This document shows positions 5,018-44,091 of a DNA stretch of 64,000 nt, in pieces. The stretch lies in the NCBI RefSeq assembly GCF_017348835.2, contig NZ_CP071375.1. One strand, 5' to 3'. The position numbers and the translations under genes are program-made. The notes under the pieces are model-generated. The model saw only the letters and a list, made by a program, of their open reading frames with translations, ran no database searches and was not told the DNA's origin. Each line of letters starts with the position of its first letter. The stretch's first letter is position 1. Source of the DNA: Escherichia coli (lineage in GTDB: Bacteria > Pseudomonadota > Gammaproteobacteria > Enterobacterales > Enterobacteriaceae).

Positions 5018-5200
5018 TCGCATCAGGCATTTATCGCCTGATGCGACGCTGGCGCGTCTTATCATGTCTGGGATTTGATGCCTTTATCACAACAGGGACG
5101 AGGCCCGTAGATCGGATAAGGCGTTCACGCCGCATCCGGCGGTTGCGCTCCGATGCCTGATGCGACGCTGGCGCGTCTTATCAGGCCTACAAAGGCATAC
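5018..5200. repeat. REP/BIME cluster (several palindromic units, gcctgatgcgacgctggcgcgtcttatcaggcctac type)
   Basis: Imperfect palindromes with REP consensus repeated in alternating orientation between convergent ygfZ and yqfA. Confidence 0.75.
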
Positions 5201-17794: not shown

Positions 17795-17978
17795 ATTTCT
17801 CTGAGATGTTCGCAAGCGGGCCAGTCCCCTGAGCCGATATTTCATACCACAAGAATGTGGCGCTCCGCGGTTGGTGAGCATGCTCGGTCCGTCCGAGAAG
17901 CCTTAAAACTGCGACGACACATTCACCTTGAACCAAGGGTTCAAGGGTTACAGCCTGCGGCGGCATCTCGGAGATTCC
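17795..17978 (+). ncRNA. ssrS: 6S RNA
   Basis: Sequence atttctctgagatgttcgcaagcgggccagtcccctgagccgatatttcatacc...ggagattccc matches remembered 6S RNA over its full length; sits between zapA and ygfA. Confidence 0.9.
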
Positions 17979-18601: not shown

Positions 18602-18649
18602 GGGCGACACACCTGCATCGCCCTGATTGACATCGTTGATTCTTTGACC

Positions 18650-18800
18650 TAATTTAGTGAGTAAGGGTAAGGGAGGATGACTCCTCCCCTGAGACTGACT
18701 GTTAATAAGCTGGGAAACTTATGAGTAACAGTACAATCAGTATGATGACAAATCGCATCATAACCCTTCTCCTTTAAGCCCTCGCTTCGGTGAGGGCTTT
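18650..18800 (+). ncRNA. sibC: SibC antitoxin sRNA (boundaries approximate)
   Basis: Antisense to ibsC, ends in hairpin gccctcgcttcggtgagggc at 18778-18797; position between ygfA and serA as remembered for sibC. Confidence 0.55.
18702..18761 (-). CDS. ibsC: type I toxin IbsC (19 aa hydrophobic peptide)
   Basis: Reverse strand atg atg cga ttt gtc atc ata ctg att gta ctg tta ctc ata agt ttc cca gct tat taa = MMRFVIILIVLLLISFPAY; below the ORF-track size cutoff. Confidence 0.8.
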   Translation of the reverse strand: MMRFVIILIVLLLISFPAY

Positions 18801-21192: not shown

Positions 21193-22089
21193 TCAGACCC
21201 CGTTGGCAAGCCGCGTGGTTAACTCATCCATAAAATATCGCGCAATGGCAGGCATCCCCTTTCGCCCCGCAAATAAAGCATACAACGGTCTGGGTATGCC
21301 GCTCCACGGTGCAAACAGGCGCACCAGTTCACCGTTCACAAGCCCCTGTTTACAGGCAAATTGAGGCAATAACGCCACGCCATTCCCACCAAGTACTGCC
21401 TGCAGCATGACGCGAAGGTTATTTGACTGCAAACGCGCCTCAGGCTGCAGCGTAATCTCCTGTTCGCCATTAATTAATTGCCACTGGCTCCCGCCATTGT
21501 TCGCCAGCCGAAGGATCCCGTCGACGTGGTTAAGATCTTCAATAGCTTTCACCTGCGGATGGCGGGCCAGCCACTGAGAACTGGCAACTAAAATATCAGC
21601 CTGGGTATGTAATTTTTTATAATGCAGCGTCGAGTCCGCAAGCGCGCCGGAAGCCGTAACCAGCGCAATATCAATGCCTTCAGCGACCATATCCACCGGG
21701 CGATTAATTGCCAGCAGTTGCACCTTCGCCAGGGGCCAACGGGCGATAAACTCACTGACAAACTCACCAAACCATGTTTCAGCCATAAATACCGGCGCGC
21801 TGACGCGCAGCATTCCCTGTGGGCTTTCCTGGGCGGCCATCACCACCGCTCTAGCCCGTTCCTCCTGCGCCATCAGCGCCCGACATTCGACAGCAAACTG
21901 TTCGCCTGCCGCCGTCAGGGCCAGACGCCGCGTAGTTCGCTGAATAAGCCGTACGCCAAGGCGCTCCTCCAGTGCAGCCATTCGTCGGCTTAATACCGAT
22001 TTCGACACGCCCGCACGCAGCGCCGCCTGACTGTAGCTGCCTTCATCGGCAATCAGGGCAAAGTAGTAATAATCATTCCAGTCGATCAT
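21193..22089 (-). CDS. LysR-family transcriptional regulator, intact (K-12 carries only a fragment annotated yqfE at this site, as far as I recall)
   Basis: 298 aa; N-terminal HTH ([35 protein letters not shown]) plus substrate-binding domain; divergent from the next gene. Confidence 0.8.
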
Positions 22090-22120
22090 GATTGTTCTAT
22101 TTTCACAACAATGAAGTTCA

Positions 22121-22136
22121 ATTATGTCTATTTAAT
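22121..22136. promoter_or_regulatory. candidate LTTR box attatgtctatttaat (ATTA-N8-TAAT dyad) in divergent promoter
   Basis: Dyad with T-N11-A architecture within the 100-bp gap between the LysR gene and the azoreductase-like gene. Confidence 0.3.
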
Positions 22137-22189
22137 CATCATGTCAACAACAGTTAAACTTCTCTCATCGCAGAAACGAGAGCAAGCCC

Positions 22190-22819
22190 ATGAAAATTCT
22201 CCATATCGACAGTAGCCCAATGCTTAAGCATTCAAGTTCGCGGAAATTAAGCCAGGCGCTGGTAGAAGCGCTTTGCCAACACTTTCCTCAAGCCACAATT
22301 ATTCATCGCGACGTTGGCCTGACGCCGCCGCCCCATTTGCGTGAAGAAACCTTTCTGGCGCTTTGCGGTAAAGAAGAGTGCAAGAACGCACAAATTCAGC
22401 AGGAGGTGAATGATATCCACGCCGCTATTGATGAACTGGCATCGTGCGATGTGCTCATTATTGGCGCGCCGATGATTAATCACAGCGTTTCATCTGGCCT
22501 CAAAACCTGGATAGATCAGGTGTGTCAGGCTGGTTTAACGTTTCGTTTTAGCTCTGCAGGCGCCGTTGGGTTACTGAAGGATAAACCGACGTTTATTGTC
22601 TCGACGCGCGGCGGTATCTATTGCGATGAAGCACATCTGGCGCTGGATCATCAGGAAAGTTATCTGCAAGCCACGCTGAAATTAATGGGCATTACCAATA
22701 CACATATTTTACGTGCAGAAGGTGTCGACAAAACCCAACCGGGACGCGAACTCGCCGAGCAAAATGCATTAGCGCAAATCCCTGATCTTATTACACAAGT
22801 ATTTAATCATTACGTTTAA
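22190..22819 (+). CDS. FMN-dependent NADH azoreductase / flavodoxin-like quinone reductase family protein
   Basis: 209 aa; same architecture as AzoR (MKILHIDSSP...DVLIIGAPMINHSVSSGLKTWIDQV...TFRFSSAGAVGLL...STRGGIY). Confidence 0.7.
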   Translation: MKILHIDSSPMLKHSSSRKLSQALVEALCQHFPQATIIHRDVGLTPPPHLREETFLALCGKEECKNAQIQQEVNDIHAAIDELASCDVLIIGAPMINHSVSSGLKTWIDQVCQAGLTFRFSSAGAVGLLKDKPTFIVSTRGGIYCDEAHLALDHQESYLQATLKLMGITNTHILRAEGVDKTQPGRELAEQNALAQIPDLITQVFNHYV

Positions 22820-22835
22820 TATAAAAGGAGTTATT

Positions 22836-23096
22836 ATGTCTATTAAGCAAAATTTATTTACCGCGTTATTTCTTTGCACTCTCACAGGACATGCATTTGC
22901 AGCAACCGAGATACACAAACCGGACAATAATCTTGAACAGTTATCAAAAGTGAGCATGTCTACACACAATAGCAACCCAGCGGGCGTTGAAAGCCAAATC
23001 AAAGAGAAAGCGGAAGAGTTACAAGCCAGCAATTACTACATCAGTTCTTTCTCCGGTAAAAATTATATCCACGCTACTGTGATTTTCTATAAATAA
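22836..23096 (+). CDS. small secreted DUF1471 (BhsA/McbA/YdgH-like) protein
   Basis: 86 aa, signal peptide ending HAFA, C-terminal ...IHATVIFYK typical of the family; GGAG Shine-Dalgarno-like sequence 8 nt upstream. Confidence 0.6.
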   Translation: MSIKQNLFTALFLCTLTGHAFAATEIHKPDNNLEQLSKVSMSTHNSNPAGVESQIKEKAEELQASNYYISSFSGKNYIHATVIFYK

Positions 23097-23158
23097 TCAC
23101 TCTATTTAATGGGAGCATGGAACTGTTCTATGCTCCGCTGCCAAAATGAAATAAAAAA

Positions 23159-24484
23159 ATGAAAAAAGCTAATCTTACAGGTACGTTGGTTTGCTTTGTC
23201 GCATGTATTATTTTTTTGTCATCCGGCGATATTTTTCGTGAAAAGCCAATCGCGCTAATATGGTTCATTCGACAAAACACACTCTTTTTTACGGGAACCC
23301 TTGCGTGGTGTCTGATGACGCTGACGATGTGCTTATCGTTGCGTTCATCATGGCTTAACAAGATGCTGGGCGGTCTGGATAAAGCATGGCGATTACATAA
23401 GTGGGCAGGAATATGCGCCATCGTTTTTTCTTTCGCCCACTGGCTGGATGAAAAATTACCCCAGTTATTTGTCGCCTTTGGCTGGCTTACTCACCCTGGT
23501 AAAATTGTTGATATTAACCTGACGCCAGTACAAGAAAATTGGCTTCATGTGGGACTGTTAGCGGGTGAATGTGCAATGTTTATTATGATAGCGATGGTTT
23601 GCGTGTCTCTTAGCAAAAGAGTTCCCTATCATTTATTTCATCTTGTTCACCGTTTGTTCCCTGTCTTTTATCTGGCAATTGCCTTTCATGTGTTTACTGC
23701 TTTGTTTAAATCATATTGGTGGGAAACTCCTGCTGCGTATTTATTAATTTTAATTACTATTCCGGGCGTCTTTGTGGCTTTCATTTCGCTGCTGAAGTTA
23801 AACGGTAATAAAAGCAAGCATCAGGCCACCGTTAAAAGCATTGTTAACCATCCGGGACAAATTACCGAAGTCATACTGGAGATGGAACATCCCATCGACT
23901 ATTGTCCGGGGCAGTTTGCATTCTTAACTTTCGCACACAGTAAAGAATCTCACCCTTTTACTATCGCTTCATATGTAAAAGAGAAGAACACGTTGCGCTT
24001 TGCCATCAAAAATTTAGGGGATTATACCTCGACTCTGGCATCCTCGATACAAATCGGCCAGTCCGCCCTCGTTGAAGGGCCATGGGGAAAGTTTGATTTT
24101 ACTCTCCCTTGCTCCCGCCAGGTCTGGATAGCAGGAGGCATCGGCATTACCCCTTTTATCGCCCAGCTTGAGTATCTGAACCAGCATGGCGCGTCCCCTG
24201 TTTCTGTGGATCTCTGGTATTGCATCAGCCGAAGCGAGGATGCATGGTATGTTGATAAACTTACCTCACTTTGTGCCCAGGCCAGTGTCACACTGCATCT
24301 GCTTGATGCGCATAAAGGTGAGCGCCTACAGTCGCACTATCTTACTGATAAAATAGCAAATAAAGGTGACACCCATTTCTGGTTTTGCGGCCCACAGAGT
24401 TTTGCCAAAGCGCTCAGCAAAGGGTTATATGAAAATGGGATTGCCAGCCAAAACTTCCATTACGACCGCTTTTGTATGCGTTAA
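23159..24484 (+). CDS. NOX/ferric-reductase-type flavocytochrome (6-TM bis-heme domain fused to FAD/NAD(P)H-binding domain)
   Basis: 441 aa; His80/His94 and His164/His177 with 14/13 spacing in TM helices, HPFT FAD motif, [11 protein letters not shown](P)H motif, C-terminal FCGP. Confidence 0.7.
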
Positions 24485-24554
24485 ATGCTCTGTACCCAAC
24501 GCAAAATTGTGTCATAGTGCAGGAAAAAGCATTTACCAGGAGCAGACAACAGCA

Positions 24555-25448
24555 ATGAAACGCCCGGACTACAGAACATTACAGGCACTGGATGCGGTGA
24601 TACGTGAACGAGGATTTGAGCGCGCGGCACAAAAGCTGTGCATTACACAATCAGCCGTCTCACAGCGCATTAAGCAACTGGAAAATATGTTCGGGCAGCC
24701 GCTGTTAGTGCGTACCGTACCGCCGCGCCCAACGGAACAAGGTCAAAAACTGCTGGCACTGCTGCGCCAGGTGGAGTTGCTGGAAGAAGAGTGGCTGGGC
24801 GATGAACAAACCGGTTCGACTCCGCTGCTACTTTCACTGGCGGTCAATGCCGACAGTCTGGCGACGTGGTTGCTTCCGGCACTGGCTCCTGTGTTGGCTG
24901 ATTCGCCTATCCGCCTCAACTTGCAGGTAGAAGATGAAACCCGCACTCAGGAACGTCTGCGTCGCGGCGAAGTGGTCGGCGCGGTGAGTATTCAACATCA
25001 GGCGCTGCCGAGTTGTCTTGTCGATAAACTTGGTGCGCTCGACTATCTGTTCGTCAGCTCAAAACCGTTTGCCGAAAAATATTTCCCTAACGGCGTAACG
25101 CGTTCGGCATTACTGAAAGCACCAGTGGTCGCGTTTGACCATCTTGACGATATGCACCAGGCCTTTTTGCAGCAAAACTTCGATCTGCCTCCTGGCAGCG
25201 TACCCTGCCATATCGTTAATTCTTCAGAAGCATTCGTACAACTTGCTCGCCAGGGCACCACCTGCTGTATGATCCCGCACCTGCAAATCGAGAAAGAGCT
25301 GGCCAGCGGTGAACTGATTGACTTAACGCCTGGGCTATTTCAACGACGGATGCTCTACTGGCACCGCTTTGCTCCTGAAAGCCGCATGATGCGTAAAGTC
25401 ACTGATGCGTTACTCGATTATGGTCACAAAGTCCTTCGTCAGGATTAA
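24555..25448 (+). CDS. argP: LysR-type regulator ArgP (IciA)
   Basis: 297 aa from ATG 24555 ([28 protein letters not shown]...). Confidence 0.9.
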
Positions 25449-25651
25449 TCCATCAAATAATGCCTGATAGCACATATCAGGCGTTGTCCTCACTTCTTTT
25501 TGTATTCCTTGAATCACATCACAAAATAGACAAATCTCAGGCGGCAAAAAACGACGTCTGAATGCATTTTTTTTGCTGGCGACAAACCCACGTAAAAAGC
25601 TCACCGTAGGCGCAAATACCCTCATTTTGATTGCGTTTTACGGAGCAAATA

Positions 25652-27796
25652 ATGTCTAACGTGCAGGAGTGGCAACAGCTTGCCAACAAGGAATTGAGCC
25701 GTCGGGAGAAAACTGTCGACTCGCTGGTTCAGCAAACCGCGGAAGGGATCGCCATCAAGCCGCTGTATACCGAAGCCGATCTCGATAATCTGGAGGTGAC
25801 AGGTACCCTTCCTGGTTTGCCGCCCTACGTTCGTGGCCCGCGTGCCACTATGTATACCGCCCAACCATGGACCATCCGTCAGTATGCTGGTTTTTCAACA
25901 GCAAAAGAGTCCAACGCTTTTTATCGTCGTAACCTGGCCGCCGGGCAAAAAGGTCTTTCCGTTGCGTTTGACCTTGCCACCCACCGAGGCTACGACTCCG
26001 ATAACCCGCGCGTGGCGGGCGACGTCGGCAAAGCGGGCGTCGCTATCGACACCGTGGAAGATATGAAAGTCCTGTTCGACCAGATCCCGCTGGATAAAAT
26101 GTCGGTTTCAATGACCATGAATGGCGCAGTGCTACCAGTACTGGAGTTTTATATCGTCGCCGCAGAAGAGCAAGGTGTTACACCTGATAAACTGACCGGC
26201 ACCATTCAAAACGATATCCTCAAAGAGTATCTTTGCCGCAACACCTATATTTACCCACCAAAACCGTCAATGCGCATTATCGCCGATATCATCGCCTGGT
26301 GTTCCGGCAACATGCCGCGATTTAATACCATCAGTATCAGCGGTTACCACATGGGTGAAGCGGGTGCCAACTGCGTGCAGCAGGTAGCATTTACGCTCGC
26401 TGATGGGATTGAGTACATCAAAGCAGCAATCTCTGCCGGACTGAAAATTGATGACTTCGCTCCTCGCCTGTCGTTCTTCTTCGGCATCGGCATGGATCTG
26501 TTTATGAACGTCGCCATGTTGCGTGCGGCACGTTATTTATGGAGCGAAGCGGTCAGTGGATTTGGCGCACAGGACCCGAAATCACTGGCGCTGCGTACCC
26601 ACTGCCAGACCTCAGGCTGGAGCCTGACTGAACAGGATCCGTATAACAACGTTATCCGCACCACCATTGAAGCACTGGCTGCGACGCTGGGCGGTACTCA
26701 GTCACTGCATACCAACGCCTTTGACGAAGCGCTTGGTTTGCCTACCGATTTCTCAGCACGCATTGCCCACAACACCCAGATCATCATCCAGGAAGAATCA
26801 GAACTCTGCCGCACCGTCGATCCACTGGCCGGATCCTATTACATTGAGTCGCTGACCGATCAAATCGTCAAACAAGCCAGAGCTATTATCCAACAGATCG
26901 ACGAAGCCGGTGGCATGGCGAAAGCGATCGAAGCAGGTCTGCCAAAACGAATGATCGAAGAGGCCTCAGCGCGCGAACAGTCGCTGATCGACCAGGGCAA
27001 GCGTGTCATCGTTGGTGTCAACAAGTACAAACTGGATCACGAAGACGAAACCGATGTACTTGAGATCGACAACGTGATGGTGCGTAACGAGCAAATTGCT
27101 TCGCTGGAACGCATTCGCGCCACCCGTGATGATGCCGCCGTAACCGCCGCGTTGAACGCCCTGACTCACGCCGCACAGCATAACGAAAACCTGCTGGCTG
27201 CCGCTGTTAATGCCGCTCGCGTTCGCGCCACCCTGGGTGAAATTTCCGATGCGCTGGAAGCCGCTTTCGACCGTTATCTGGTGCCAAGCCAGTGTGTTAC
27301 CGGCGTGATTGCGCAAAGCTATCATCAGTCTGAGAAATCGGCCTCCGAGTTCGATGCCATTGTTGCGCAAACGGAGCAGTTCCTTGCCGACAATGGTCGT
27401 CGCCCGCGCATTCTGATCGCCAAAATGGGCCAGGATGGGCACGATCGCGGCGCGAAAGTGATCGCCAGCGCCTATTCCGATCTCGGTTTCGACGTAGATT
27501 TAAGCCCGATGTTCTCTACACCTGAAGAGATCGCCCGCCTGGCAGTAGAAAATGACGTTCACGTAGTGGGCGCATCCTCACTGGCTGCCGGTCATAAAAC
27601 GCTGATCCCGGAACTGGTCGAAGCACTGAAAAAATGGGGACGCGAAGATATCTGCGTAGTCGCCGGTGGCGTCATTCCACCGCAGGATTACGCCTTCCTG
27701 CAAGAGCGCGGCGTGGCGGCGATTTATGGTCCAGGTACACCTATGCTCGACAGTGTGCGCGACGTACTGAATCTGATAAGCCAGCATCATGATTAA
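25652..27796 (+). CDS. scpA: methylmalonyl-CoA mutase (Sbm, sleeping beauty mutase)
   Basis: 714 aa from ATG 25652 ([14 protein letters not shown]...), B12-binding C-terminal domain. Confidence 0.95.
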
Positions 27797-28784
27797 TGAA
27801 GCCACGCTGGCAGAAAGTATTCGCCGCTTACGTCAGGGTGAGCGTGCCACACTCGCCCAGGCCATGACGCTGGTGGAAAGCCGTCACCCGCGTCATCAGG
27901 CGCTAAGTACGCAACTGCTTGATGCCATTATGCCGTACTGCGGTAACGCCCTGCGACTGGGCGTTACCGGCACACCCGGCGCGGGGAAAAGTACCTTTCT
28001 TGAAGCCTTTGGCATGTTGTTGATTCGTGATGGATTAAAGGTTGCGGTTATTGCGGTCGATCCCAGCAGTCCGGTCACTGGCGGTAGCATTCTCGGGGAT
28101 AAAACCCGCATGAATGACCTGGCGCGTGCCGAGACGGCGTTTATTCGCCCGGTACCATCCTCCGGTCATCTGGGCGGTGCCAGTCAGCGAGCGCGGGAAT
28201 TAATGCTGTTATGCGAAGCGGCGGGTTATGACGTAGTGATTGTCGAAACGGTTGGCGTCGGGCAGTCGGAAACGGAAGTCGCCCGTATGGTGGACTGTTT
28301 TATCTCGTTGCAAATTGCCGGTGGCGGCGATGATCTGCAGGGCATTAAAAAAGGGCTGATGGAAGTGGCTGATCTGATCGTTATCAACAAAGACGATGGC
28401 GATAACCATACCAATGTCGCCATTGCCCGGCATATGTACGAGAGTGCCCTGCATATTCTGCGACGTAAATACGACGAATGGCAGCCACGGGTTCTGACTT
28501 GTAGCGCACTGGAAAAACGTGGAATCGATGAGATCTGGCACGCCATCATCGACTTCAAAACCGCGCTAACTGCCAGTGGTCGTTTACAACAAGTGCGGCA
28601 ACAACAATCGGTGGAATGGCTGCGTAAGCAGACCGAAGAAGAAGTACTGAATCACCTGTTCGCGAATGAAGATTTCGATCGCTATTACCGCCAGACGCTT
28701 TTAGCGGTCAAAAACAATACGCTCTCACCGCGCACCGGCCTGCGGCAGCTCAGTGAATTTATCCAGACGCAATATTTTGATTAA
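27789..28784 (+). CDS. argK: methylmalonyl-CoA mutase-associated GTPase (MeaB/ArgK)
   Basis: 331 aa, P-loop GTPGAGKST; start overlaps scpA stop. Confidence 0.9.
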
Positions 28785-28794
28785 AGGAATTTTT

Positions 28795-29580
28795 ATGTCT
28801 TATCAGTATGTGAACGTTGCCACTATCAACAAAGTGGCGGTCATTGAGTTTAACTATGGCCGAAAACTTAATGCCTTAAGTAAAGTCTTTATTGATGATC
28901 TTATGCAGGCGTTAAGCGATCTCAACCGGTCGGAAATTCGCTGTATCATTTTGCGCGCGCCGAGTGGATCCAAAGTCTTCTCCGCAGGTCACGATATTCA
29001 CGAACTGCCGTCTGGCGGTCGCGATCCGCTCTCCTATGATGATCCATTGCGTCAAATCACCCGCATGATCCAAAAATTCCCGAAACCGATCATTTCGATG
29101 GTGGAAGGTAGTGTTTGGGGTGGCGCATTTGAAATGATCATGAGTTCCGATCTGATCATCGCCGCCAGTACCTCAACCTTCTCAATGACGCCTGTAAACC
29201 TCGGCGTCCCGTATAACCTGGTCGGCATTCACAACCTGACCCGCGACGCGGGCTTCCACATTGTCAAAGAGCTGATTTTTACCGCTTCGCCAATCACCGC
29301 CCAGCGCGCGCTGGCTGTCGGCATCCTCAACCATGTTGTGGAAGTGGAAGAACTGGAAGATTTCACCTTACAAATGGCGCACCACATCTCTGAGAAAGCG
29401 CCGTTAGCCATTGCCGTTATCAAAGAAGAGCTGCGTGTACTGGGCGAAGCACACACCATGAACTCCGATGAATTTGAACGTATTCAGGGGATGCGCCGCG
29501 CGGTTTATGACAGCGAAGATTACCAGGAAGGGATGAACGCTTTCCTCGAAAAACGTAAACCTAATTTCGTTGGTCATTAA
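28795..29580 (+). CDS. scpB: methylmalonyl-CoA decarboxylase (crotonase fold)
   Basis: 261 aa from ATG 28795 (MSYQYVNVATINKVAVIEFNYG...). Confidence 0.9.
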   Translation: MSYQYVNVATINKVAVIEFNYGRKLNALSKVFIDDLMQALSDLNRSEIRCIILRAPSGSKVFSAGHDIHELPSGGRDPLSYDDPLRQITRMIQKFPKPIISMVEGSVWGGAFEMIMSSDLIIAASTSTFSMTPVNLGVPYNLVGIHNLTRDAGFHIVKELIFTASPITAQRALAVGILNHVVEVEELEDFTLQMAHHISEKAPLAIAVIKEELRVLGEAHTMNSDEFERIQGMRRAVYDSEDYQEGMNAFLEKRKPNFVGH

Positions 29581-29603
29581 TCCCTGCGAACGAAGGAGTA
29601 AAA

Positions 29604-31082
29604 ATGGAAACTCAGTGGACAAGGATGACCGCCGATGAAGCGGCAGAAATTATCCAGCATAACGACATGGTGGCATTTAGCGGCTTTACCCCAGCGGGTT
29701 CGCCGAAAGCCCTACCCACCGCGATTGCCCGCAGAGCTAACGAACAGCATGAGGCCAAAAAGCCGTATCAAATTCGCCTGCTGACGGGGGCGTCAATCAG
29801 CGCCGCCGCTGACGATGTACTTTCTGACGCCGATGCTGTTTCCTGGCGTGCGCCATATCAAACATCGTCCGGTTTACGTAAAAAGATCAATCAGGGCGCG
29901 GTGAGTTTCGTTGACCTGCATTTGAGCGAAGTGGCGCAAATGGTCAATTACGGTTTCTTCGGCGACATTGATGTTGCCGTCATTGAAGCATCGGCACTGG
30001 CACCAGATGGTCGAGTCTGGTTAACCAGCGGGATCGGTAATGCGCCGACCTGGCTGCTGCGAGCGAAGAAAGTGATCATTGAACTCAATCACTATCACGA
30101 TCCGCGCGTTGCAGAACTGGCGGATATTGTGATTCCTGGCGCGCCACCGCGGCGCAATAGCGTGTCGATCTTCCATGCAATGGATCGCGTCGGTACCCGC
30201 TATGTGCAAATCGATCCGAAAAAGATTGTCGCCGTCGTGGAAACCAACTTGCCCGACGCCGGTAATATGCTGGATAAGCAAAATCCCATGTGCCAGCAGA
30301 TTGCCGATAACGTGGTCACGTTCTTATTGCAGGAAATGGCACATGGGCGTATTCCGCCGGAATTTCTGCCGCTGCAAAGTGGCGTGGGCAATATCAATAA
30401 TGCGGTAATGGCGCGTCTGGGGGAAAACCCGGAAATTCCTCCGTTTATGATGTATTCGGAAGTGCTACAGGAATCGGTGGTGCATTTACTGGAAACCGGC
30501 AAAATCAGCGGGGCCAGCACCTCCAGCCTGACAATCTCGGCCGATTCCCTGCGCAAGATTTACGACAATATGGATTACTTTGCCAGTCGCATTGTGTTGC
30601 GTCCGCAGGAGATTTCCAATAACCCGGAAATCATCCGTCGTCTGGGCGTCATCGCTCTGAACGTCGGCCTGGAGTTTGATATTTACGGGCATGCCAACTC
30701 AACGCACGTAGCCGGGGTCGATCTGATGAACGGCATCGGCGGCAGCGGTGATTTTGAACGCAACGCGTATCTGTCGATCTTTATGGCCCCGTCGATTGCT
30801 AAAGAAGGCAAGATCTCAACCGTCGTGCCAATGTGCAGCCATGTTGATCACAGCGAACACAGCGTCAAAGTGATCATCACCGAACAAGGGATCGCCGATC
30901 TGCGCGGTCTTTACCCGCTTCAACGCGCCCGCACTATCATTGATAATTGTGCACATCCTATGTATCGGGATTATCTGCATCGCTATCTGGAAAATGCGCC
31001 TGGCGGACATATTCACCACGATCTTAGCCACGTCTTCGACTTACACCGTAATTTAATTGCAACCGGCTCGATGCTGGGTTAA
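29604..31082 (+). CDS. scpC: propionyl-CoA:succinate CoA transferase
   Basis: 492 aa ORF. Confidence 0.9.
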   Translation: METQWTRMTADEAAEIIQHNDMVAFSGFTPAGSPKALPTAIARRANEQHEAKKPYQIRLLTGASISAAADDVLSDADAVSWRAPYQTSSGLRKKINQGAVSFVDLHLSEVAQMVNYGFFGDIDVAVIEASALAPDGRVWLTSGIGNAPTWLLRAKKVIIELNHYHDPRVAELADIVIPGAPPRRNSVSIFHAMDRVGTRYVQIDPKKIVAVVETNLPDAGNMLDKQNPMCQQIADNVVTFLLQEMAHGRIPPEFLPLQSGVGNINNAVMARLGENPEIPPFMMYSEVLQESVVHLLETGKISGASTSSLTISADSLRKIYDNMDYFASRIVLRPQEISNNPEIIRRLGVIALNVGLEFDIYGHANSTHVAGVDLMNGIGGSGDFERNAYLSIFMAPSIAKEGKISTVVPMCSHVDHSEHSVKVIITEQGIADLRGLYPLQRARTIIDNCAHPMYRDYLHRYLENAPGGHIHHDLSHVFDLHRNLIATGSMLG

Positions 31083-31975
31083 TGACTCGTCCCGTCACGA
31101 TCTTCAGCAATATGCTGAAGCATCGTGGCGGTATAACGATGATTTCTGATTGAATAAAGATATTCCTGCATATACATCGGCCTGTGCGGTGCATCAAAAT
31201 ATTTCAGCGTTGCCGGATTCACCAGTCGCCAGGCAAAATGCGGGATCACCGTCAGAAAATGTCCGCGCTCCACGGCGCTGATTTTGGCCATAAAACTGTA
31301 GGGACGATAAATAATGGTTGGATTGATCCCACAAGGTCGCATATTCGCATCAATCATTGCTTCGAAGTTGGCCCGGTTCTGAAAGCGCATTTGTAGCCAG
31401 GGCAGCTCCTGAAGCAGCTCTTGCTCTTGACGCTCTTCATAACGGCGAGAAACGAGAAAGCCTAATCGCAGCGGTGGTAGTTCACTGATAGTCAGGTTTT
31501 CCAGTTCCTGAACTCGTGCAGATACATGCTGTGGGGAGATAATAAAATCTAACTGACGGTCAAAAAGATTATCGATAACGCCGTTTTCGCTGAACTCAAC
31601 TGGCTGGGCGGTCACGCCTTCATACTTATCTCCGAGACTAATCAACTGATCGAAAATAATTGTCGGATAAGTATTATCTATGCCAATCACAATTTCTCGT
31701 GAACGACGCCCTGAGTTATGGATTTCATTATCAATCGCAGAAAGCCGTTGATAAACCGGGAACAGTTTTTGATACAGTTCCTGTCCGGCTTTATTGAGAC
31801 TGATATTATTATCTTTACGGGTAAATAGCGTATAGCCAATTTGTTCTTCCAGCGCGGCAATGCTTTTACCAAATGGCGAAGCCGTCATATGGATTTTTTC
31901 TGCCGCCCGGGCAATATTATTGGTTTGCGCTAATAAAATGAAATTGCGCATCTTTTTCGAATTAAAAATGTCCAT
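31079..31975 (-). CDS. ygfI: LysR-family transcriptional regulator YgfI
   Basis: 298 aa from ATG 31975 (MDIFNSKKMRNFILLAQTNNIARAAEKIHMTASPF...); convergent 4-nt overlap with scpC. Confidence 0.85.
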   Translation of the reverse strand: MDIFNSKKMRNFILLAQTNNIARAAEKIHMTASPFGKSIAALEEQIGYTLFTRKDNNISLNKAGQELYQKLFPVYQRLSAIDNEIHNSGRRSREIVIGIDNTYPTIIFDQLISLGDKYEGVTAQPVEFSENGVIDNLFDRQLDFIISPQHVSARVQELENLTISELPPLRLGFLVSRRYEERQEQELLQELPWLQMRFQNRANFEAMIDANMRPCGINPTIIYRPYSFMAKISAVERGHFLTVIPHFAWRLVNPATLKYFDAPHRPMYMQEYLYSIRNHRYTATMLQHIAEDRDGTSH

Positions 31976-32141
31976 CCCCCTCCCCCGCATCCTTGTCCGC
32001 TTAACCGTTTCAGTCAGCCTATCCTTGATGAAACCGCGAGCAAAGATAGGTGATTACGTCATGGTTTTACAGAAAATTACAGAAAAAGGAGGCAATATCG
32101 GGTAAAGGCATTAGCCCGACGAATACGTCGGGCTACAAGTA

Positions 32142-32882
32142 TTATTGTGCTGCAGGTGTTTTAGCGGGTTGTTGATCCACAGGTTCTAACTGGAAGACCA
32201 CATCGACCTGATCATCAAACTGAATAGCGGCCTGCTCGTAAGTTTCCTGGGCGGACACCGGCGCGGCATCGGCTTTCATCATCCGCACCATTGGGCTGGG
32301 CTGATAGTTGGAAACATGGTAGCGCACGCTATATACCGGCCCCAGTTTACGATGAAAGCCGTTCGCCAGTTCCTGCGCCTGATGAATCGCGTTATCAATC
32401 GCTGCCTTACGCGCTTTGTCTTTATAGGCATCTGGCTGCGCCACGCCCAGCGACACAGAACGAATTTCGTTAAGACCCGCCTTCAGCGCGCCATCCAGCA
32501 AGAAATTCAGTTTGTCTAACTGACGGAGCGTGACTTCCACCGTTCTCACAGCGCGGTAGCCTTTCAGGATACTTTTACCATCCTGATAATCATAATCTGG
32601 CTGGGTACGTAAGTTCGCTGAGCTGATATCTTTTTTCGCGATCTGATTGAGTTCAAGGAAGGAAATGTATTGTGCGACGCGCTCATCTGCCTGTTTCTTG
32701 GCAGTAGCGGCATCCTTCGCGGCCACGTTGACTTCAATCGCAAGAGTGGCAATGTCTGGCACCGCATCCACGCTTGCCGTACCGGAGGTGACAATATGCG
32801 GTCCATCCGGCAATTCGTTAGCCTGCGCTGCCATCCCGCTAATACCCATTAATGCCGCCAGGGCGATAACTTTGAACTTCAC
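32142..32882 (-). CDS. yggE: periplasmic DUF541 (SIMPL-like) protein YggE
   Basis: 246 aa, signal peptide. Confidence 0.85.
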   Translation of the reverse strand: MKFKVIALAALMGISGMAAQANELPDGPHIVTSGTASVDAVPDIATLAIEVNVAAKDAATAKKQADERVAQYISFLELNQIAKKDISSANLRTQPDYDYQDGKSILKGYRAVRTVEVTLRQLDKLNFLLDGALKAGLNEIRSVSLGVAQPDAYKDKARKAAIDNAIHQAQELANGFHRKLGPVYSVRYHVSNYQPSPMVRMMKADAAPVSAQETYEQAAIQFDDQVDVVFQLEPVDQQPAKTPAAQ

Positions 32883-33610: not shown

Positions 33611-33813
33611 GTAATTTATTCCGAGCTAATTATCTGATTTGCAGACTATAGCGTGTGAGCATCATTAGAGGAAATGGATATTTTTAATAGCATATTAAAA
33701 ATATTAATAAGAAAACGAACAGTCAGGATGCGTGGCTATTTTTTGGATAACAATATCGCTCACAGGAATCGTGCTACGGCCATTACGGCCTCGCTTTATA
33801 AAGGACTCACACA

Positions 33814-34743
33814 ATGCATGCTTATGATCTTACCCTCTTGCCCCATCCTATCCGCGAAAATATGCCGCGCCAACAAGGTTGGTGCTTTGGCCTACCGCCA
33901 GGCATAACGCCCGAACAGTGGCCGCTGGATCCAAATAATGGTTTCCCATTGAATCATGGATTTACCCTGCTGTTGCCGGAAGATTATCGGATTTATGGGC
34001 CAGAGATTGTCGCGTTATCTTTCTTTGCTGTTGCGCCCGAGCACAACGATGGCGGAACACCATGTACAGAAGAATTATTGGATGTGTTTGAGAATTTTGA
34101 GTCCGGCATACCCCCCGAAGATCCAGACCTTTATGTTTTCTGGCTGGCAGAAAAGCAACGACATCCACGGCTATTTCGGATGGAAGATATATTAGGTTGT
34201 TCTTATGCGGTGATTTTACTCACCCAGCAAGAGTTCAACGGCCCATTTTGTGAACCGCCTGAACTTATACCTAATCACTATCGCAACCAGCAAGATACAC
34301 CAGAATGGATGACCACCGACAGTGCGTTTAGTTATTTTCAGGCAAGCGTCAGACCAAAAGATACGCCTGAAAGCAATTTTGTATACCGTAAAATGGGCAC
34401 CATTCCTGAGCAGTCGCTGGCTTTCAATCTGGCGATTTCATGTAAGCCGCGCGCTTTTGATCCTAATGCGGGAATTAGCCCCACAGAAAGAAATAATACG
34501 GAATATCAGTCCATTCGTTATTTTTCTAAAGATGCAGAGGGAAAGAGTAAATGTGAAACTCACCAGTGGCATAGTGCACATCAACCCGATCATCTCGGTG
34601 GTTCAATGGTTCCATTGCAATCTATACCAGATGGAATGTCACCTTTTTATATTGAATTTGAAGAATACTTCGGCGGGTATAATTTTGGTACTGGCAATGC
34701 GTGGCTGGACTTTAAAAATATGAAGTTCGATTTTAGTTGTTAA
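33814..34743 (+). CDS. cytoplasmic protein of unknown function, tentatively DUF1963 (YwqG-like)
   Basis: 309 aa, no signal peptide; segment GWCFGLPPGITPEQWPLDPNNGFPLNHGFTLLLPED...VALSFF resembles the YwqG skeleton as I remember it (FGG.P.LP..WP...G.PL.F....G.L.FF); AAAGGA Shine-Dalgarno-like sequence upstream. Confidence 0.45.
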   Translation: MHAYDLTLLPHPIRENMPRQQGWCFGLPPGITPEQWPLDPNNGFPLNHGFTLLLPEDYRIYGPEIVALSFFAVAPEHNDGGTPCTEELLDVFENFESGIPPEDPDLYVFWLAEKQRHPRLFRMEDILGCSYAVILLTQQEFNGPFCEPPELIPNHYRNQQDTPEWMTTDSAFSYFQASVRPKDTPESNFVYRKMGTIPEQSLAFNLAISCKPRAFDPNAGISPTERNNTEYQSIRYFSKDAEGKSKCETHQWHSAHQPDHLGGSMVPLQSIPDGMSPFYIEFEEYFGGYNFGTGNAWLDFKNMKFDFSC

Positions 34744-34797
34744 AGTTCACGGCTTTTAATATTAATGACGACCAATAAAATTACAGATGGAACTGAG

Positions 34798-35841
34798 ATG
34801 ACATTCAAACACTTTTTACTTTCTCTGGTATCAGGATTACTTCTGATATCTTCCCACAACGTTGCCGCTGAAAAAATTCTTCGTTATACAGACCATGAAC
34901 CCTACGGGGGAATGCGTACACAAATAATTAAAGAGATATTTTTTGCAGAAATTGAAAAAGAGTCGCAGGGGCGTTTGAAAATCGAACCACACTGGAACGG
35001 TGAAACCGCCATCAGCTATGACGCTCTGACGACAATAAGTGATGGTAGCAAAGCTGATATGGGTATAGTGGTACCGGAATACACAGCGAAACAATTACCG
35101 CTTCATCAAATCTTCAAGAGCTTTGCTATTGGCCCGGATCATGGAGCCAGTCAGGTAGAATTCTTTCGTCGCTTATATGCGGAAATTCCCGAATTTAACG
35201 CTGAACTTGAGCGTAACAATATCGTGAATTTACAGTTTTTCCTTGGCTACCCGGTAGGCTTTTTCTCTACCAGGCCCATTGATAAATTGACTGCACTTCA
35301 GGGAACCACCTGGCGAACAGCCAGTTTCTGGCATCGGGCTTATTTAACTCATACGGGGGCAAAAACCGTAACCTTACCGTGGAATGAGCAAATTACGACA
35401 GCACTCCGCGACGGACAACTCGATGGCTTAATGGTCAATCTTGATAGCGGATATGACATCCATGCTGAACGTGCTGCGCCGAATGTGTTGCTCTCCCCTT
35501 CGCTCTGGCTTGGTCATGTTTATCTGTTGGTAATGAATAAACAAACGTGGGAAAACCTTGATAACAGAGATCGTGAGGCTATTCAACAAGCGGCCATTAC
35601 AACCGAGAAAGCGCTGGGCAAGGCATTAGATAACAACCTGATCAGCATGGTAAAAACGCTTGAGCAGGAAGGTGCACAGGTTCGCTATTTGAAAAAATCA
35701 GAGCTGGACGCCTGGCAGAAAGCGATTGGTTATCAGCAAGAGCAAACGCAGTGGGTAGAACAGCAAAAAACTGAAGGCGTGGATAATGCCGGGGAAGTCA
35801 TGCAAAAAGTTGCCAATATACTTGATGAAACAATGCGTTAA
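34798..35841 (+). CDS. TRAP-type periplasmic solute-binding protein, DctP family (orphan: no DctQ/DctM nearby)
   Basis: Signal peptide MTFKHFLLSLVSGLLLISSHNVAA then DctP-like blocks (EIEKESQGRLKIEPHW; LQGTTWRTAS...GAKTVTLPWNEQITTALRDGQLDG); ORF track start 34765 adds 11 unlikely residues. Confidence 0.65.
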   Translation: MTFKHFLLSLVSGLLLISSHNVAAEKILRYTDHEPYGGMRTQIIKEIFFAEIEKESQGRLKIEPHWNGETAISYDALTTISDGSKADMGIVVPEYTAKQLPLHQIFKSFAIGPDHGASQVEFFRRLYAEIPEFNAELERNNIVNLQFFLGYPVGFFSTRPIDKLTALQGTTWRTASFWHRAYLTHTGAKTVTLPWNEQITTALRDGQLDGLMVNLDSGYDIHAERAAPNVLLSPSLWLGHVYLLVMNKQTWENLDNRDREAIQQAAITTEKALGKALDNNLISMVKTLEQEGAQVRYLKKSELDAWQKAIGYQQEQTQWVEQQKTEGVDNAGEVMQKVANILDETMR

Positions 35842-35882
35842 ATTGGTAGTGCGCCCATGAATTTCATGGGCGCTTCACATGA

Positions 35883-36758
<876 letters not shown>

Positions 36759-36939: not shown

Positions 36940-37055
36940 TGTGCGCTTTGTCATGCCGGATGCGGCGTGAACGCCTTATCCGGCCTACAAAAACCTGCGA
37001 ATTCAATATATTGCAGGATACGTGTAGGCCTGATAAGCGTAGCGCATCAGGCAAT
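36940..37055. repeat. REP/BIME elements
   Basis: gccggatgcggcgtgaacgccttatccggcctac and gtaggcctgataagcgtagcgcatcaggc palindromic units. Confidence 0.65.
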
Positions 37056-41014: not shown

Positions 41015-41446
41015 ATGATGACATTGCCCTACCCATATTCTTCCTCCGCACGCTTTTACGCACTGCGCCTCCTCCCCGGGCAGGAAGTTTTTTCCCAGCT
41101 ACACGCTTTTGCACACCAGCAGCAACTTCATGCCGCCTGGATTGCAGGCTGTACCGGTAGCCTGACTGACATCGCCTTGCGCTATGCCGGGCAAGAAGGC
41201 ACCACGCTCCTGAACGGTACATTCGAAGTGATCTCACTAAACGGCACGTTGGAACAGAGTGGTGAGCATCTTCATCTCTGCGTTTCCGATCCACACGGCA
41301 CGATGCTTGGCGGTCATATGATGCCCGGCTGTACCGTGCGGACCACGCTTGAACTGGTGATCGGTAGCCTTGAGGAACTGGCGTTTAGCCGCCAACCTTG
41401 CGCGCTTTCTGGTTACGACGAGTTGCATATTTCCCCCGTTAAATAA
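41015..41446 (+). CDS. PPC (DUF296) domain protein, putative DNA-binding/accessory protein
   Basis: 143 aa; PPC-like pattern RLLPGQEV...GSL...FEVISLNGTL...HLHL...GGHMMPGCTV...LELVIGSL. Confidence 0.55.
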   Translation: MMTLPYPYSSSARFYALRLLPGQEVFSQLHAFAHQQQLHAAWIAGCTGSLTDIALRYAGQEGTTLLNGTFEVISLNGTLEQSGEHLHLCVSDPHGTMLGGHMMPGCTVRTTLELVIGSLEELAFSRQPCALSGYDELHISPVK

Positions 41447-41468
41447 CTACTTTCAGAGAGGTTTTCTT

Positions 41469-42047
41469 ATGGCGCGTCGCCACTTTTCCAGTCAGGCGCT
41501 GGTGTTAATCGTTATATCTATCGCCATCAATATGATCGGCGGGCAACTGGCCAGCATGGTCAAATTACCTATATTTCTCGACTCCATCGGCACACTTATT
41601 AGCGCGGTACTGCTTGGTCCGGTGATCGGAATGCTGACCGGCTTACTGACCAATTTACTCTGGGGATTGCTGACCGACCCGATCGCCGCCGCATTTGCAC
41701 CCGTCGCGATGGTCATCGGCCTGGTCGCCGGTTGGCTGGCGCGAGCGGGTTGGTTTCGCACCCTACCAAAAGTCGTTGTCAGCGGCGTGATTATTACGCT
41801 TGCGGTAACGGTCGTCGCTGTACCGCTGCGTACTGCGCTGTTCGGCGGTGTCACCGGTAGCGGAGCCGATTTGTTCGTTGCCTGGATGCACTCGATGGGG
41901 CAAAACCTGGTGGAGTCGGTGGCGATTACGGTGATAGGCGCGAACCTGGTCGATAAAACTCTTACAGCGGTGATTGTCTGGCTTTTACTGCGCCAGCTGC
42001 CGATTCGCACCACGCGCCATTTTCCGGCAATGGCTGCCGTGCGCTAA
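41469..42047 (+). CDS. ECF transporter substrate-specific (S) component, specificity unknown
   Basis: 192 aa from ATG 41469 (GAGAGG Shine-Dalgarno-like sequence 8 nt upstream), about 6 TM helices; stop abuts next start. Confidence 0.55.
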   Translation: MARRHFSSQALVLIVISIAINMIGGQLASMVKLPIFLDSIGTLISAVLLGPVIGMLTGLLTNLLWGLLTDPIAAAFAPVAMVIGLVAGWLARAGWFRTLPKVVVSGVIITLAVTVVAVPLRTALFGGVTGSGADLFVAWMHSMGQNLVESVAITVIGANLVDKTLTAVIVWLLLRQLPIRTTRHFPAMAAVR

Positions 42048-42755
42048 ATGCATCCATTTACCTCATTAACACTGTGGGCATTGGCGGCCTGCACCACGCT
42101 TATCCTGCCCGCGCAGACCATTTTGCCGATCTATAGCGCGGCGACCTTTTTTTGCCTTATTGCGCTAAAGGCCACGCGGCGGCGGGCAAAATATGTCGTC
42201 TGGCTGATGTTCTCGCTGGGAGCCGGGCTGTGGCTGGTACACGGTGGCTGGCTAACAGAATGGCTAAGCGGCACGCCGCGTTCGCCGGAGCGTTGGACGC
42301 ATGCTATTACGCTCTGGTTGCGGATTCTGGCGATTGTTTCAACCTCACAGTTGTGGATGCAGTACGTCCCCGTGCAATGTTTTATCCGCGCTCTGTTTGC
42401 TTCTCGCCTGCCGCCAGGCGTCGCTTATCTGTTTGCCGGGCCGTTATTGGTCGTTGAGCAGTTAAAACGGCAATTAGCGATTATTCATGAAGCGCAGCGT
42501 GCCCGCGGCGTGCCGCTGGATGAGGGCTGGTATCAGCGTTTACGTGCGATGCCCGCGTTAATTATTCCGCTAACACACAATGCGCTAAACGATCTTGCTG
42601 TCCGTGGTGCGGCGCTGGATATGCGGGCATTTCGGATCCACAACCGACGAACAACGTTGTGGGCACCAGCCGATAGCACCCTACAACGCGTAGCGCGTTA
42701 CACCATGATCTTGCTGATGCTGACAGAATTCGGAGCGTGGATATGGTTACGTTAG
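42048..42755 (+). CDS. ECF transporter transmembrane (T) component, EcfT/CbiQ family
   Basis: 235 aa membrane protein with coupling-helix motif HEAQRARGV. Confidence 0.65.
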   Translation: MHPFTSLTLWALAACTTLILPAQTILPIYSAATFFCLIALKATRRRAKYVVWLMFSLGAGLWLVHGGWLTEWLSGTPRSPERWTHAITLWLRILAIVSTSQLWMQYVPVQCFIRALFASRLPPGVAYLFAGPLLVVEQLKRQLAIIHEAQRARGVPLDEGWYQRLRAMPALIIPLTHNALNDLAVRGAALDMRAFRIHNRRTTLWAPADSTLQRVARYTMILLMLTEFGAWIWLR

Positions 42756-43420
42756 AACAGTTCCGTTATTGCCCGACACACTCAACGCATCCTCCGTTCT
42801 GTTATGACTTTCACTATGTCAAACCGGGGATGGTCGCCATCTTTGGTGACAACGGCAGTGGCAAAAGTACGCTGGCACAGCTGATGGCGGGCTGGTATCC
42901 GGACTTTCTGCCAGGAGAGATAACAGGCACGGGGACGCTCCTCGGTACGCCCATTGGGCATCTCCCGCTTAATGAACAATCCGCCACCATCCAGCTCGTC
43001 CAGCAATCGCCCTATTTGCAGCTCTCCGGCTGTACCTTTAGCGTGGAAGAAGAAGTTGCCTTTGGGCCAGAAAATCTGTGTCTTGCTGAAGCAGAGATTA
43101 TGGCGCGGATTGATGCCGCCCTGACTCTGACCGAGTGCCAGCCGTTGCGCCATCGTCACCCGGCAACACTCTCCGGTGGAGAGACACAGCGCGTGGTCAT
43201 CGCCTGCGCCATCGCGATGCAGCCAAAGCTATTAATTCTTGATGAAGCCTTTAGCCGCCTGACGCCGCAGGCCAGCGAAATGCTGTTGCAGCGCTTACAA
43301 CACTGGGCGTTTGAACGTGGTTCGCTGATTATTCTTTTTGAACGTCATCGCACACCTTTCCTGAACTACTGCCAGCAAGCGTGGCAATTGCAAAACGGAG
43401 CACTCCAGCCACTATGTTAA
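42743..43420 (+). CDS. ECF/ABC transporter ATPase (A component)
   Basis: Walker A GDNGSGKST, signature LSGGETQRV, Walker B LLILDEA; overlaps T-component stop. Confidence 0.8.
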   Translation: MVTLEQFRYCPTHSTHPPFCYDFHYVKPGMVAIFGDNGSGKSTLAQLMAGWYPDFLPGEITGTGTLLGTPIGHLPLNEQSATIQLVQQSPYLQLSGCTFSVEEEVAFGPENLCLAEAEIMARIDAALTLTECQPLRHRHPATLSGGETQRVVIACAIAMQPKLLILDEAFSRLTPQASEMLLQRLQHWAFERGSLIILFERHRTPFLNYCQQAWQLQNGALQPLC

Positions 43421-44091
43421 CGTTAAATCAGATATCTTATCGCTGGCCTGGCGCTGCAACGGATTGTCTTTGCGACATTTCTCTGCAACTCAAACAAGGT
43501 GAATGGTTGGCGCTGACCGGTGACAATGGCGCAGGGAAATCGACGCTGTTACGAGTAATGGCAGGTCTTCTTACGCCCACAGCCGGTACGGTTATGCTGC
43601 AACAACAGGCGATGAAAAACCTGAAAAACCGCCAGCGCGCGGCAAAGATTGGCGTACTGTTTCAGGAAGCGGAAAACCAACTTTTTCACAGCACCGTCGC
43701 TGACGAGATCGCATTTGGTTTGAAACTGCAAAAATGCCCGGCGGATGAAATCACTCAACGTACCCATGCTGCCCTGCAATGTTGTCAGTTAGCAGACACT
43801 GCCAGCGCGCACCCGTTGGATCTGCATAGTGCGCAGCGACGGATGGTCGCCGTCGCCTGCCTGGAAGCACTCTCTCCGCCACTATTGCTGCTGGACGAGC
43901 CGAGTCGGGATTTTGACGAAAATTGGTTGAGCGTGTTTGAAAGCTGGCTGGAGAAGTGCCGCCAGCGAGGCACGAGCGTCGTAGCAATCAGTCATGACGC
44001 CGCATTTACCCGGCGTCATTTCTCTCGTGTGGTGCGACTGGAAGATGGTCTAATCAGGAACGTTAATCCACCAGAAGATATTCACCCGTAG
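43414..44091 (+). CDS. ECF/ABC transporter ATPase, second copy with degenerate signature motif
   Basis: Walker A GDNGAGKST, Walker B LLLLDEPSRD, signature reduced to LHSAQRR; ATG overlaps previous stop (atgttaa). Confidence 0.8.
   Translation: MLTLNQISYRWPGAATDCLCDISLQLKQGEWLALTGDNGAGKSTLLRVMAGLLTPTAGTVMLQQQAMKNLKNRQRAAKIGVLFQEAENQLFHSTVADEIAFGLKLQKCPADEITQRTHAALQCCQLADTASAHPLDLHSAQRRMVAVACLEALSPPLLLLDEPSRDFDENWLSVFESWLEKCRQRGTSVVAISHDAAFTRRHFSRVVRLEDGLIRNVNPPEDIHP

Follow-up and report, generated by a model that had tools for sequence, protein, structure and literature searches.

The stretch of DNA analysed here, a 64-kb window, belongs to an Escherichia coli chromosome; 2 bases distinguish it from the corresponding sequence of the pig strain PE164. 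Both the list of open reading frames and the RefSeq annotation of PE164 place four genes on its plus strand, together spanning window positions 25652-31082. The first, scpA (sbm; 25652..27796, 714 aa), encodes an adenosylcobalamin-dependent methylmalonyl-CoA mutase, and is followed by meaB (argK/ygfD; 27789..28784, 331 aa), for a G3E-family GTPase chaperone of the mutase, scpB (ygfG; 28795..29580, 261 aa), for a biotin-independent methylmalonyl-CoA decarboxylase of the crotonase fold, and scpC (ygfH; 29604..31082, 492 aa), for a propionyl-CoA:succinate CoA-transferase. Each gene starts with ATG, ends with TAA and contains no internal stop. Neighbouring genes are separated by very little, if anything: the first 8 nt of meaB lie within scpA, and gaps of 10 nt and 23 nt precede scpB and scpC, respectively. 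Mechanically called reading frames begin further 5' in two cases, at a TTG for scpA (25631) and at a GTG for scpB (28753); profile matches and the alignment with K-12 support the ATG starts of both genes. For scpB in particular, the first residue covered by the profile is number 15 of the longer frame with the GTG start, which argues for the ATG at 28795.

The four genes lie between argP and srsR (ygfI). On the 5' side, the intergenic region of 203 nt between argP and scpA (25449..25651, plus strand) includes the weak native promoter region of the scp/sbm genes and the ribosome-binding site of scpA, ACGGAG, as well as a stem-loop directly 3' of the argP stop codon (25457..25487, plus strand). 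On the 3' side, the boundary is formed by srsR (31079..31975, minus strand), a convergent gene outside the operon whose product is a LysR-family regulator (NF047842, 631 bits against a cut-off of 425); the stop codons of scpC and srsR share the palindrome TTAA (31079-31082). From argP through argO the layout is collinear with that of K-12 DH10B. We conclude that the locus is almost certainly the chromosomal scpA-meaB(argK)-scpB-scpC or "sleeping beauty mutase" (sbm) operon of E. coli in its usual place. Chance resemblance can be dismissed, given NCBIfam E-values of 1e-146 to 0 and a DNA identity of 98-100% with thousands of E. coli genomes. Nothing contradicting this identity was seen, neither a frameshift or stop in the four genes nor a failed profile match.

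Family assignment relied on NCBIfam profiles with curated cut-offs, which all four products exceed. ScpA scores 1245.6 bits with NF006944 (cut-off 876), and TIGR00641 and TIGR00640 cover residues 28-547 and 583-713, corresponding to the substrate and B12 domains. In structure comparison it matches human MMUT (E = 5e-277) and Propionibacterium shermanii MutB (E = 1e-268). Its B12-binding DxHxxG motif, the signature of the base-off/His-on mode of cobalamin ligation, reads DGHDRG at residues 595-600, in alignment with the human motif, and the three signature columns are well kept among homologues (D 38/42, H 37/41, G 35/41). MeaB (NF006958, 494.7 bits against 329) aligns end to end with the E. 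coli YgfD structure 2P67 (E = 7e-218) and carries a Walker A motif, GTPGAGKS, at 61-68 and the NKxD motif, as NKDD, at 200-203. ScpB (NF008506, 486.3 bits against 257) aligns over 261 of 261 columns with structure 1EF8 (E = 7e-171) and has His66, Gly110 and Tyr140, which we take, following the 1EF8 literature, to be active-site residues. ScpC falls in the YgfH subfamily of family I CoA-transferases (TIGR03458, 750 bits against 658.7), finds structural relatives in 2NVV and AarC (4EU3), and shows the GxGGxxD motif as GIGGSGD at 377-383. The enzyme activities of this strain's own four proteins we infer from the literature or from gene arrangement.

Little else was found in the region. The antisense frames on the minus strand (26966-27442, 30200-30556, 28209-28541, 28226-28558, 25622-25864 and 30021-30281) gave no Pfam match at E <= 0.01 and were set aside as chance frames. 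A repeat search of 25000-32200 returned only short chance pairs of low identity, and no IS or REP element. A scan of the whole window with Rfam at gathering thresholds gave no match inside the operon, and the window contains no tRNA genes.

Comparison with K-12 DH10B underlines how ordinary the locus is. The K-12 operon (sbm-ygfD-ygfG-ygfH) has the same gene order, strand, protein lengths (714/331/261/492 aa), junction spacing and neighbours (argP on one side, srsR-yggE-argO on the other), and its coding DNA is about 99% identical to the window copy, without a single indel. The earlier note, which had described four full-length genes, tightly spaced or overlapping, at exactly these coordinates, was correct on each of these points; the alignment with K-12, the check it had named, confirms the reading frames, and the identities and order it gave agree with the profiles, the structure matches and the PE164 annotation. 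The two operons differ at 15 amino acids (five in ScpA, three in MeaB, two in ScpB and five in ScpC). Five changes are private to the pig lineage of PE164 and strain F2_81, namely A165E and R373H in ScpA, P46S in ScpB, and A306T and S437Y in ScpC. The window strain also differs from K-12 in carrying accessory DNA on both sides of the operon.

More distant systems share the core of this machinery but not its setting. In comparison with human MMUT-MMAA, P. shermanii MutAB and Methylobacterium extorquens MeaB, the alignment of ScpA with MMUT and MutB extends over almost the entire protein, M. extorquens MeaB and human MMAA match the E. coli MeaB at E = 1e-78 to 1e-90, and both the DxHxxG motif for B12 binding and the P-loop are kept. 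The E. coli locus, however, has one mutase gene and no beta-subunit gene. Furthermore, the mutase is linked here to a decarboxylase and a CoA-transferase, not to an epimerase and a carboxylase or transcarboxylase; the scp operon encodes no epimerase (PMC5512728).

The four genes are treated in the literature as one operon, whose promoter is reported to be weak or inactive (PMC3850637). Most likely they are transcribed together, beginning at a weak promoter within the argP-scpA spacer of 203 nt, and their translation is probably coupled where genes overlap or nearly touch. In an alternative scenario the four reading frames would be independently transcribed genes, or scpA would be read through from argP. 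The scan for promoters could be taken in this sense, since it gave no sigma-70-like consensus match upstream of scpA on the plus strand of the spacer, as could the weak terminator-like hairpins inside the genes (13 observed, 7.8 +/- 2.8 expected). These internal sites have only 3-4 G-C pairs, however, and are not clearly above chance, while the spacing of the genes (-8, +10 and +23 nt) provides no space between them for a promoter or terminator. Read-through is further opposed by the strong hairpin directly after argP, for which RNA folding gives a 13-bp stem, -17.5 kcal/mol and z = -5.8 relative to shuffled sequences, and whose core inverted repeat (25462-25482) is among the hits of the terminator scan. 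This hairpin is likely the argP terminator, so that scpA would need a promoter of its own. With the published view of a single operon added, we regard independent transcription or read-through as very unlikely.

In culture the pathway would be mostly silent, owing to the weak promoter and to the dependence of E. coli on B12 from outside. Co-transcription, expression level and physiological role we infer from the literature or from the arrangement of the genes. The spacer is identical to that of DH10B at 203 of 203 positions, and thus nothing in cis suggests that this copy is expressed differently from the weakly expressed laboratory one. The statement in the earlier note that the operon is known, yet poorly expressed in laboratory strains, agrees with published work (PMC3850637; PMC5512728). 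Control of the operon by the neighbouring regulator is not reported in the SrsR study (PMC9181523), which makes no mention of scp or sbm genes.

To place the intact operon in the context of the species, its interior was sought in complete E. coli genomes. Of 5426 such genomes, 4310 (about 79%) carry it and 1116 (20.6%) have lost it through internal deletions, at least two of which are independent. The main deletion may mark phylogroup B2. In strain B36 (NZ_LR130545.1) a deletion of 4.26 kb, from window position ~26670 to ~30929, occurred at an imperfect 15-nt direct repeat; the locus keeps its chromosomal position and its flanks argP and srsR, with the 5' part of scpA and the 3' end of scpC as remnants, and srsR is a pseudogene as well. 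ES4 has a different deletion, of 2.67 kb, together with a stop in scpC. None of these lesions occurs in the window operon. Strain ATCC 25922 has also been reported to lack the operon (PMC12750587), and our literature search found no account of scp operon loss at the level of phylogroups. The intact operon is therefore the majority state and not in itself notable. The earlier note had thought its integrity beside variable regions worth remarking, and the variable regions are real, as K-12 lacks the DNA at window positions 21386-24498 and 33713-35905, which is rare in E. coli (1-4% of genomes); the intactness, by contrast, is common. Where the operon is kept, dN/dS values of 0.11 in comparison with K-12 and of 0.04 with a strain further removed indicate, at the level of coding sequence, that it is under purifying selection and thus no decaying relic in those lineages.

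Work on K-12 has described a B12-dependent cycle from succinate to propionate (PMC3850637; PMC5512728). In this scheme ScpC would move CoA from propionyl-CoA onto succinate, ScpA with adenosylcobalamin would convert the resulting succinyl-CoA to methylmalonyl-CoA, with MeaB/ArgK binding the mutase as its GTPase chaperone, and ScpB would decarboxylate methylmalonyl-CoA to propionyl-CoA, from which ScpC would then free propionate. However, ScpA is reported to yield (R)-methylmalonyl-CoA, whereas ScpB is presumed to act on the (S) form, and E. coli has no epimerase (PMC5512728); the textbook cycle may thus be incomplete in vivo. This raises the possibility that the genes are functional but that, for want of methylmalonyl-CoA epimerase, their natural role is not the closed cycle, and that they handle instead propionyl-CoA or (S)-methylmalonyl-CoA from the catabolism of amino acids or odd-chain compounds. 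Expression of the operon led from glucose to propionate only in combination with an epimerase from Propionibacterium, and in rich medium it raised the degradation of amino acids to propionate (PMC5512728); strong purifying selection also indicates a real function, despite the label "silent". On the other hand, other engineering work obtained propionate or 1-propanol from the activated operon with no added epimerase (PMC3850637), and the sequence contains nothing to separate the two roles. We consider such a catabolic role possible, though on balance unlikely, and retain the succinate-to-propionate cycle as the working interpretation. In a paper on amino-acid fermentation in biofilms (PMC5459495), the sbm work appears in the reference list only.

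The description of the operon as intact, also made in the earlier note, holds for the reading frames but needs qualification for ScpA, in which the private A165E change falls at a strongly conserved position. Across 5.9 kb this substitution (nt 26145) is the sole DNA difference from strain F2_81. Among 131 diverse homologues, column 165 is alanine in 113 and glutamate in none. ScpA otherwise follows the consensus at most of the columns conserved at >=80% (108 of 113 in all); four of its departures, at 244, 286, 289 and 540, are common to K-12 Sbm, and A165E is the only one private to the strain. R373H was initially considered a serious lesion as well. Position 373 is arginine in 54 of the 65 closer homologues, as it is in the MCM of human and of P. 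shermanii and in eight other E. coli strains. Nevertheless, this candidate was downgraded, as the column is only 46% conserved overall (arginine in MCM-like sequences, leucine in more distant homologues) and two homologues have histidine.

These observations open the prospect that the operon, although structurally intact, is silently disabled, A165E, perhaps together with R373H, destabilising or inactivating the mutase. The operon would then be in the first phase of a decay that, in about a fifth of E. coli genomes, has ended in deletion. Besides the two residues themselves, the branch private to this lineage, with five non-synonymous against eight synonymous changes, would fit such a course, and its loss through at least two different deletions makes clear that E. 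coli can do without the operon. Yet there is no stop, frameshift or lost catalytic motif; counts of five and eight changes are too small to demonstrate relaxed selection, and mildly deleterious variants are usual on terminal branches. Moreover, K-12 Sbm is off consensus at the four shared positions and is nevertheless reported to be active, and the single base at nt 26145 may be an assembly error. Silent disablement is in our view improbable. What the sequence shows for the mutase is an open reading frame, which may encode a working enzyme.

Overall, the operon of this strain lacks no part and hardly differs from that of laboratory strains; it is ordinary and already known. Descriptions of the operon, its enzymes, two of their crystal structures and its weak expression go back to about 2000, and its use for the production of propionate, 1-propanol and PHBV is routine in metabolic engineering. 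The present analysis adds context: an intact copy is the norm in E. coli, the cis-regulatory region is that of K-12, and the genes are under purifying selection. A165E, in turn, would matter only for the use or assay of this strain's mutase. One may go further and propose, as a doubtful conjecture, that selection maintains the "silent" operon in some niches, given its low dN/dS where it is kept and its outright deletion in about 21% of genomes, and that the A165E of the pig strain, at a near-invariant alanine, is a first step of its loss. If this were true, intact reading frames would overstate the number of E. coli strains able to run the B12-dependent succinate/propionate pathway.

Four consecutive plus-strand ORFs in the mechanical ORF list span 25631-31082, and the RefSeq annotation places scpA at 25652-27796, meaB (argK/ygfD) at 27789-28784, scpB (ygfG) at 28795-29580 and scpC (ygfH) at 29604-31082, all on the + strand and exactly where the earlier note had put them. 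The longer mechanical ORFs of scpA (TTG at 25631) and scpB (GTG at 28753) are upstream extensions; the scpB profile match starts at residue 15 of its long ORF, and the K-12 starts of both genes are the ATGs, not the TTG and GTG. The window itself is E. coli chromosome: over its 64 kb it departs at 2 bases from NZ_CP114128.1 (strain PE164, pig, China) 854522-790523, read as the reverse complement. These, the only mismatches with the PE164 RefSeq record, lie at 34319 and at one position within 1-25523, and the window derives from PE164 or from an assembly nearly identical to it.

Alignment to the laboratory strain K-12 DH10B confirms the reading frames, with all four genes of equal length and free of indels and internal stops. 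The nucleotide differences amount to 23, 14, 5 and 14 in scpA, meaB, scpB and scpC, and the amino acid differences to 5, 3, 2 and 5, respectively. ScpA and meaB overlap by 8 nt, while gaps of 10 and 23 nt separate meaB from scpB and scpB from scpC, with Shine-Dalgarno-like motifs 5' of scpB (AGGA) and scpC (AAGGAG). Thus, the description of the genes as full length and tightly spaced or overlapping is correct. At the 3' end, the palindrome TTAA (31079-31082) provides the stop codon of both scpC and the convergent srsR, so there is no intergenic terminator between them, and any transcript reading on out of one gene runs antisense to the other; the arrangement is identical in K-12. Inside the operon we found no Rfam family, tRNA gene, notable repeat or mobile element, or credible antisense gene. 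The Rfam scan of the window at gathering score gave four matches elsewhere, namely naRNA4 (5110-5187), 6S RNA (ssrS, 17795-17978), a SIB antitoxin RNA beside an Ibs toxin gene (18627-18777) and ES036 (36989-37031), all ordinary for E. coli.

All four products score above the curated cut-offs of their NCBIfam models: ScpA as methylmalonyl-CoA mutase (NF006944, 1245.6 bits; cut-off 876 bits), MeaB (NF006958, 494.7 bits; cut-off 329 bits), ScpB as methylmalonyl-CoA decarboxylase (NF008506, 486.3 bits; cut-off 257 bits) and ScpC as YgfH-type succinate CoA-transferase (TIGR03458, 750 bits; cut-off 658.7 bits). MeaB and ScpB align end to end with the E. coli YgfD (2P67) and YgfG (1EF8) structures, ScpA matches the structures of human MMUT (E = 5e-277) and P. 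shermanii MutB, and ScpC matches 2NVV and the AarC series. The diagnostic motifs DGHDRG (ScpA, 595-600), GTPGAGKS and NKDD (MeaB, 61-68 and 200-203) and GIGGSGD (ScpC, 377-383) are present, as are His66, Gly110 and Tyr140 of ScpB.

In K-12, ScpC moves CoA from propionyl-CoA to succinate, ScpA converts succinyl-CoA to methylmalonyl-CoA with adenosylcobalamin, which E. coli cannot synthesize de novo, and ScpB decarboxylates methylmalonyl-CoA to propionyl-CoA; MeaB/ArgK is a mutase-binding partner, the name argK being a relic of its old misassignment as an arginine-transport kinase (PMC3850637, PMC5512728). The cycle has been argued to be incomplete, with the (R)-enantiomer as the ScpA product and the (S)-enantiomer as the presumed ScpB substrate; propionate was obtained from glucose only after addition of a heterologous epimerase (PMC5512728). 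The operon is reported to be hardly expressed, its promoter being weak or inactive (PMC3850637), in agreement with the earlier description of it as known but poorly expressed in laboratory strains. The 203-nt argP-scpA spacer is base-for-base identical to that of K-12, and a consensus scan found no sigma-70-like promoter on its + strand, which fits such a promoter. A stable hairpin 3' of the argP stop codon (25457-25487; -17.5 kcal/mol, z = -5.8) is probably the argP terminator. Judged on cis sequence alone, no feature suggests that expression in the source strain differs from that in laboratory strains.

A search of 5426 complete E. coli genomes located the 5.9-kb locus in 5425, with coverage of at least 80% in only 4272. 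The operon interior (26700-30900) is present in 4310 and absent from 1116 (20.6%). In strain B36 (locus L003, 6252-7307) a 4.26-kb deletion, the common one among genomes without the interior, leaves the 5' portion of scpA fused to the final ~150 nt of scpC; its junction is at a direct repeat of 15 nt with imperfect copies, CCGCAC[C/T]A[C/T]CATTGA (window 26656-26670 and 30929-30943), and srsR is a pseudogene there. Strain names suggest that this main deletion may mark phylogroup B2. ATCC 25922 has been mentioned in passing as lacking the operon (PMC12750587). Strain ES4 (locus L007, 5335-8091) carries a different, independent 2.67-kb deletion (26322-28991) and an internal stop in scpC. Given these counts and the different deletions, most genomes have the operon intact, and E. 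coli can do without it and has lost it on more than one occasion. Over the four genes dN/dS (Nei-Gojobori) is 0.11 in the comparison with K-12 and 0.04 with RIVM_C019217, a more distant strain, clearly indicative of purifying selection on this "sleeping" operon where it is retained.

The integrity of the operon next to variable regions had been considered worth noting. Rare accessory DNA does flank it on both sides, each island stopping short of the operon, but an intact copy is ordinary, the operon interior being present in 4310 of 5426 genomes. The upstream island (21386-24498), between rpiA and argP, has a GC content of about 0.41 at 23-24 kb. Its genes encode a full-length LysR regulator (21193-22089, -), an FMN-dependent azoreductase-like protein (22190-22819, +), a DUF1471/YdgH-BhsA protein (22836-23096, +) and a 441-aa ferric-reductase-TM + FAD + NAD (NOX-like) flavoprotein (23159-24484, +). 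At least 80% of it occurs in only 232 of 5426 complete genomes, and K-12 retains only a 231-nt LysR fragment. The downstream insertion (33713-35905), between argO and mscS, contains a 309-aa ORF that matches no Pfam family (33814-34743, +) and the gene of a TRAP (DctP-type) solute-binding protein, an orphan in that no genes for membrane partners lie close by (34798-35841, +); just 57 of 5426 genomes have the complete stretch, and about 216 have a part, the binding-protein half. Further along (~41015-44091), between epd and a yggC-like kinase, lies a five-gene cluster of a PPC-domain DNA-binding protein, ECF transporter S and T components and two ABC ATPases, whereas in K-12 DH10B epd directly adjoins yggC; the adjoining fumE carries a frameshift in the PE164 annotation.

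Among ten tabulated E. coli alleles of the operon, ScpA R373H (window 26769), ScpB P46S and ScpC A306T and S437Y occur only in the window and in F2_81, its near-twin, and ScpA A165E only in the window and PE164; the A165E base, nt 26145, is the one position at which the window and F2_81 differ over 5.9 kb. Besides these five substitutions, the private branch carries 8 synonymous changes. ScpA was used to query 1.84 billion representative proteins, and the 150 best hits were aligned to it; among these, column 165, within a hydrophobic stretch (…AVLPVL-A-FYIVAA…), is Ala in 113 of 131 diverse homologues and Glu in none. Position 373 is Arg in MCM-like sequences, column 373 being Arg in 54 of 65 homologues at least 50% identical, mostly Leu in more distant ones and His twice. 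The window departs at five of the 113 ScpA columns conserved at 80% or more; those at 244, 286, 289 and 540 are common to K-12 Sbm, and only A165E is strain-private. These alignments do not demonstrate loss of ScpA function, but they limit what "intact" can be taken to mean to the level of reading frames. Overall, the observation is confirmed and its interpretation supported: this is a textbook operon of E. coli, located where it usually is and in its usual state, and therefore already known and of little interest.
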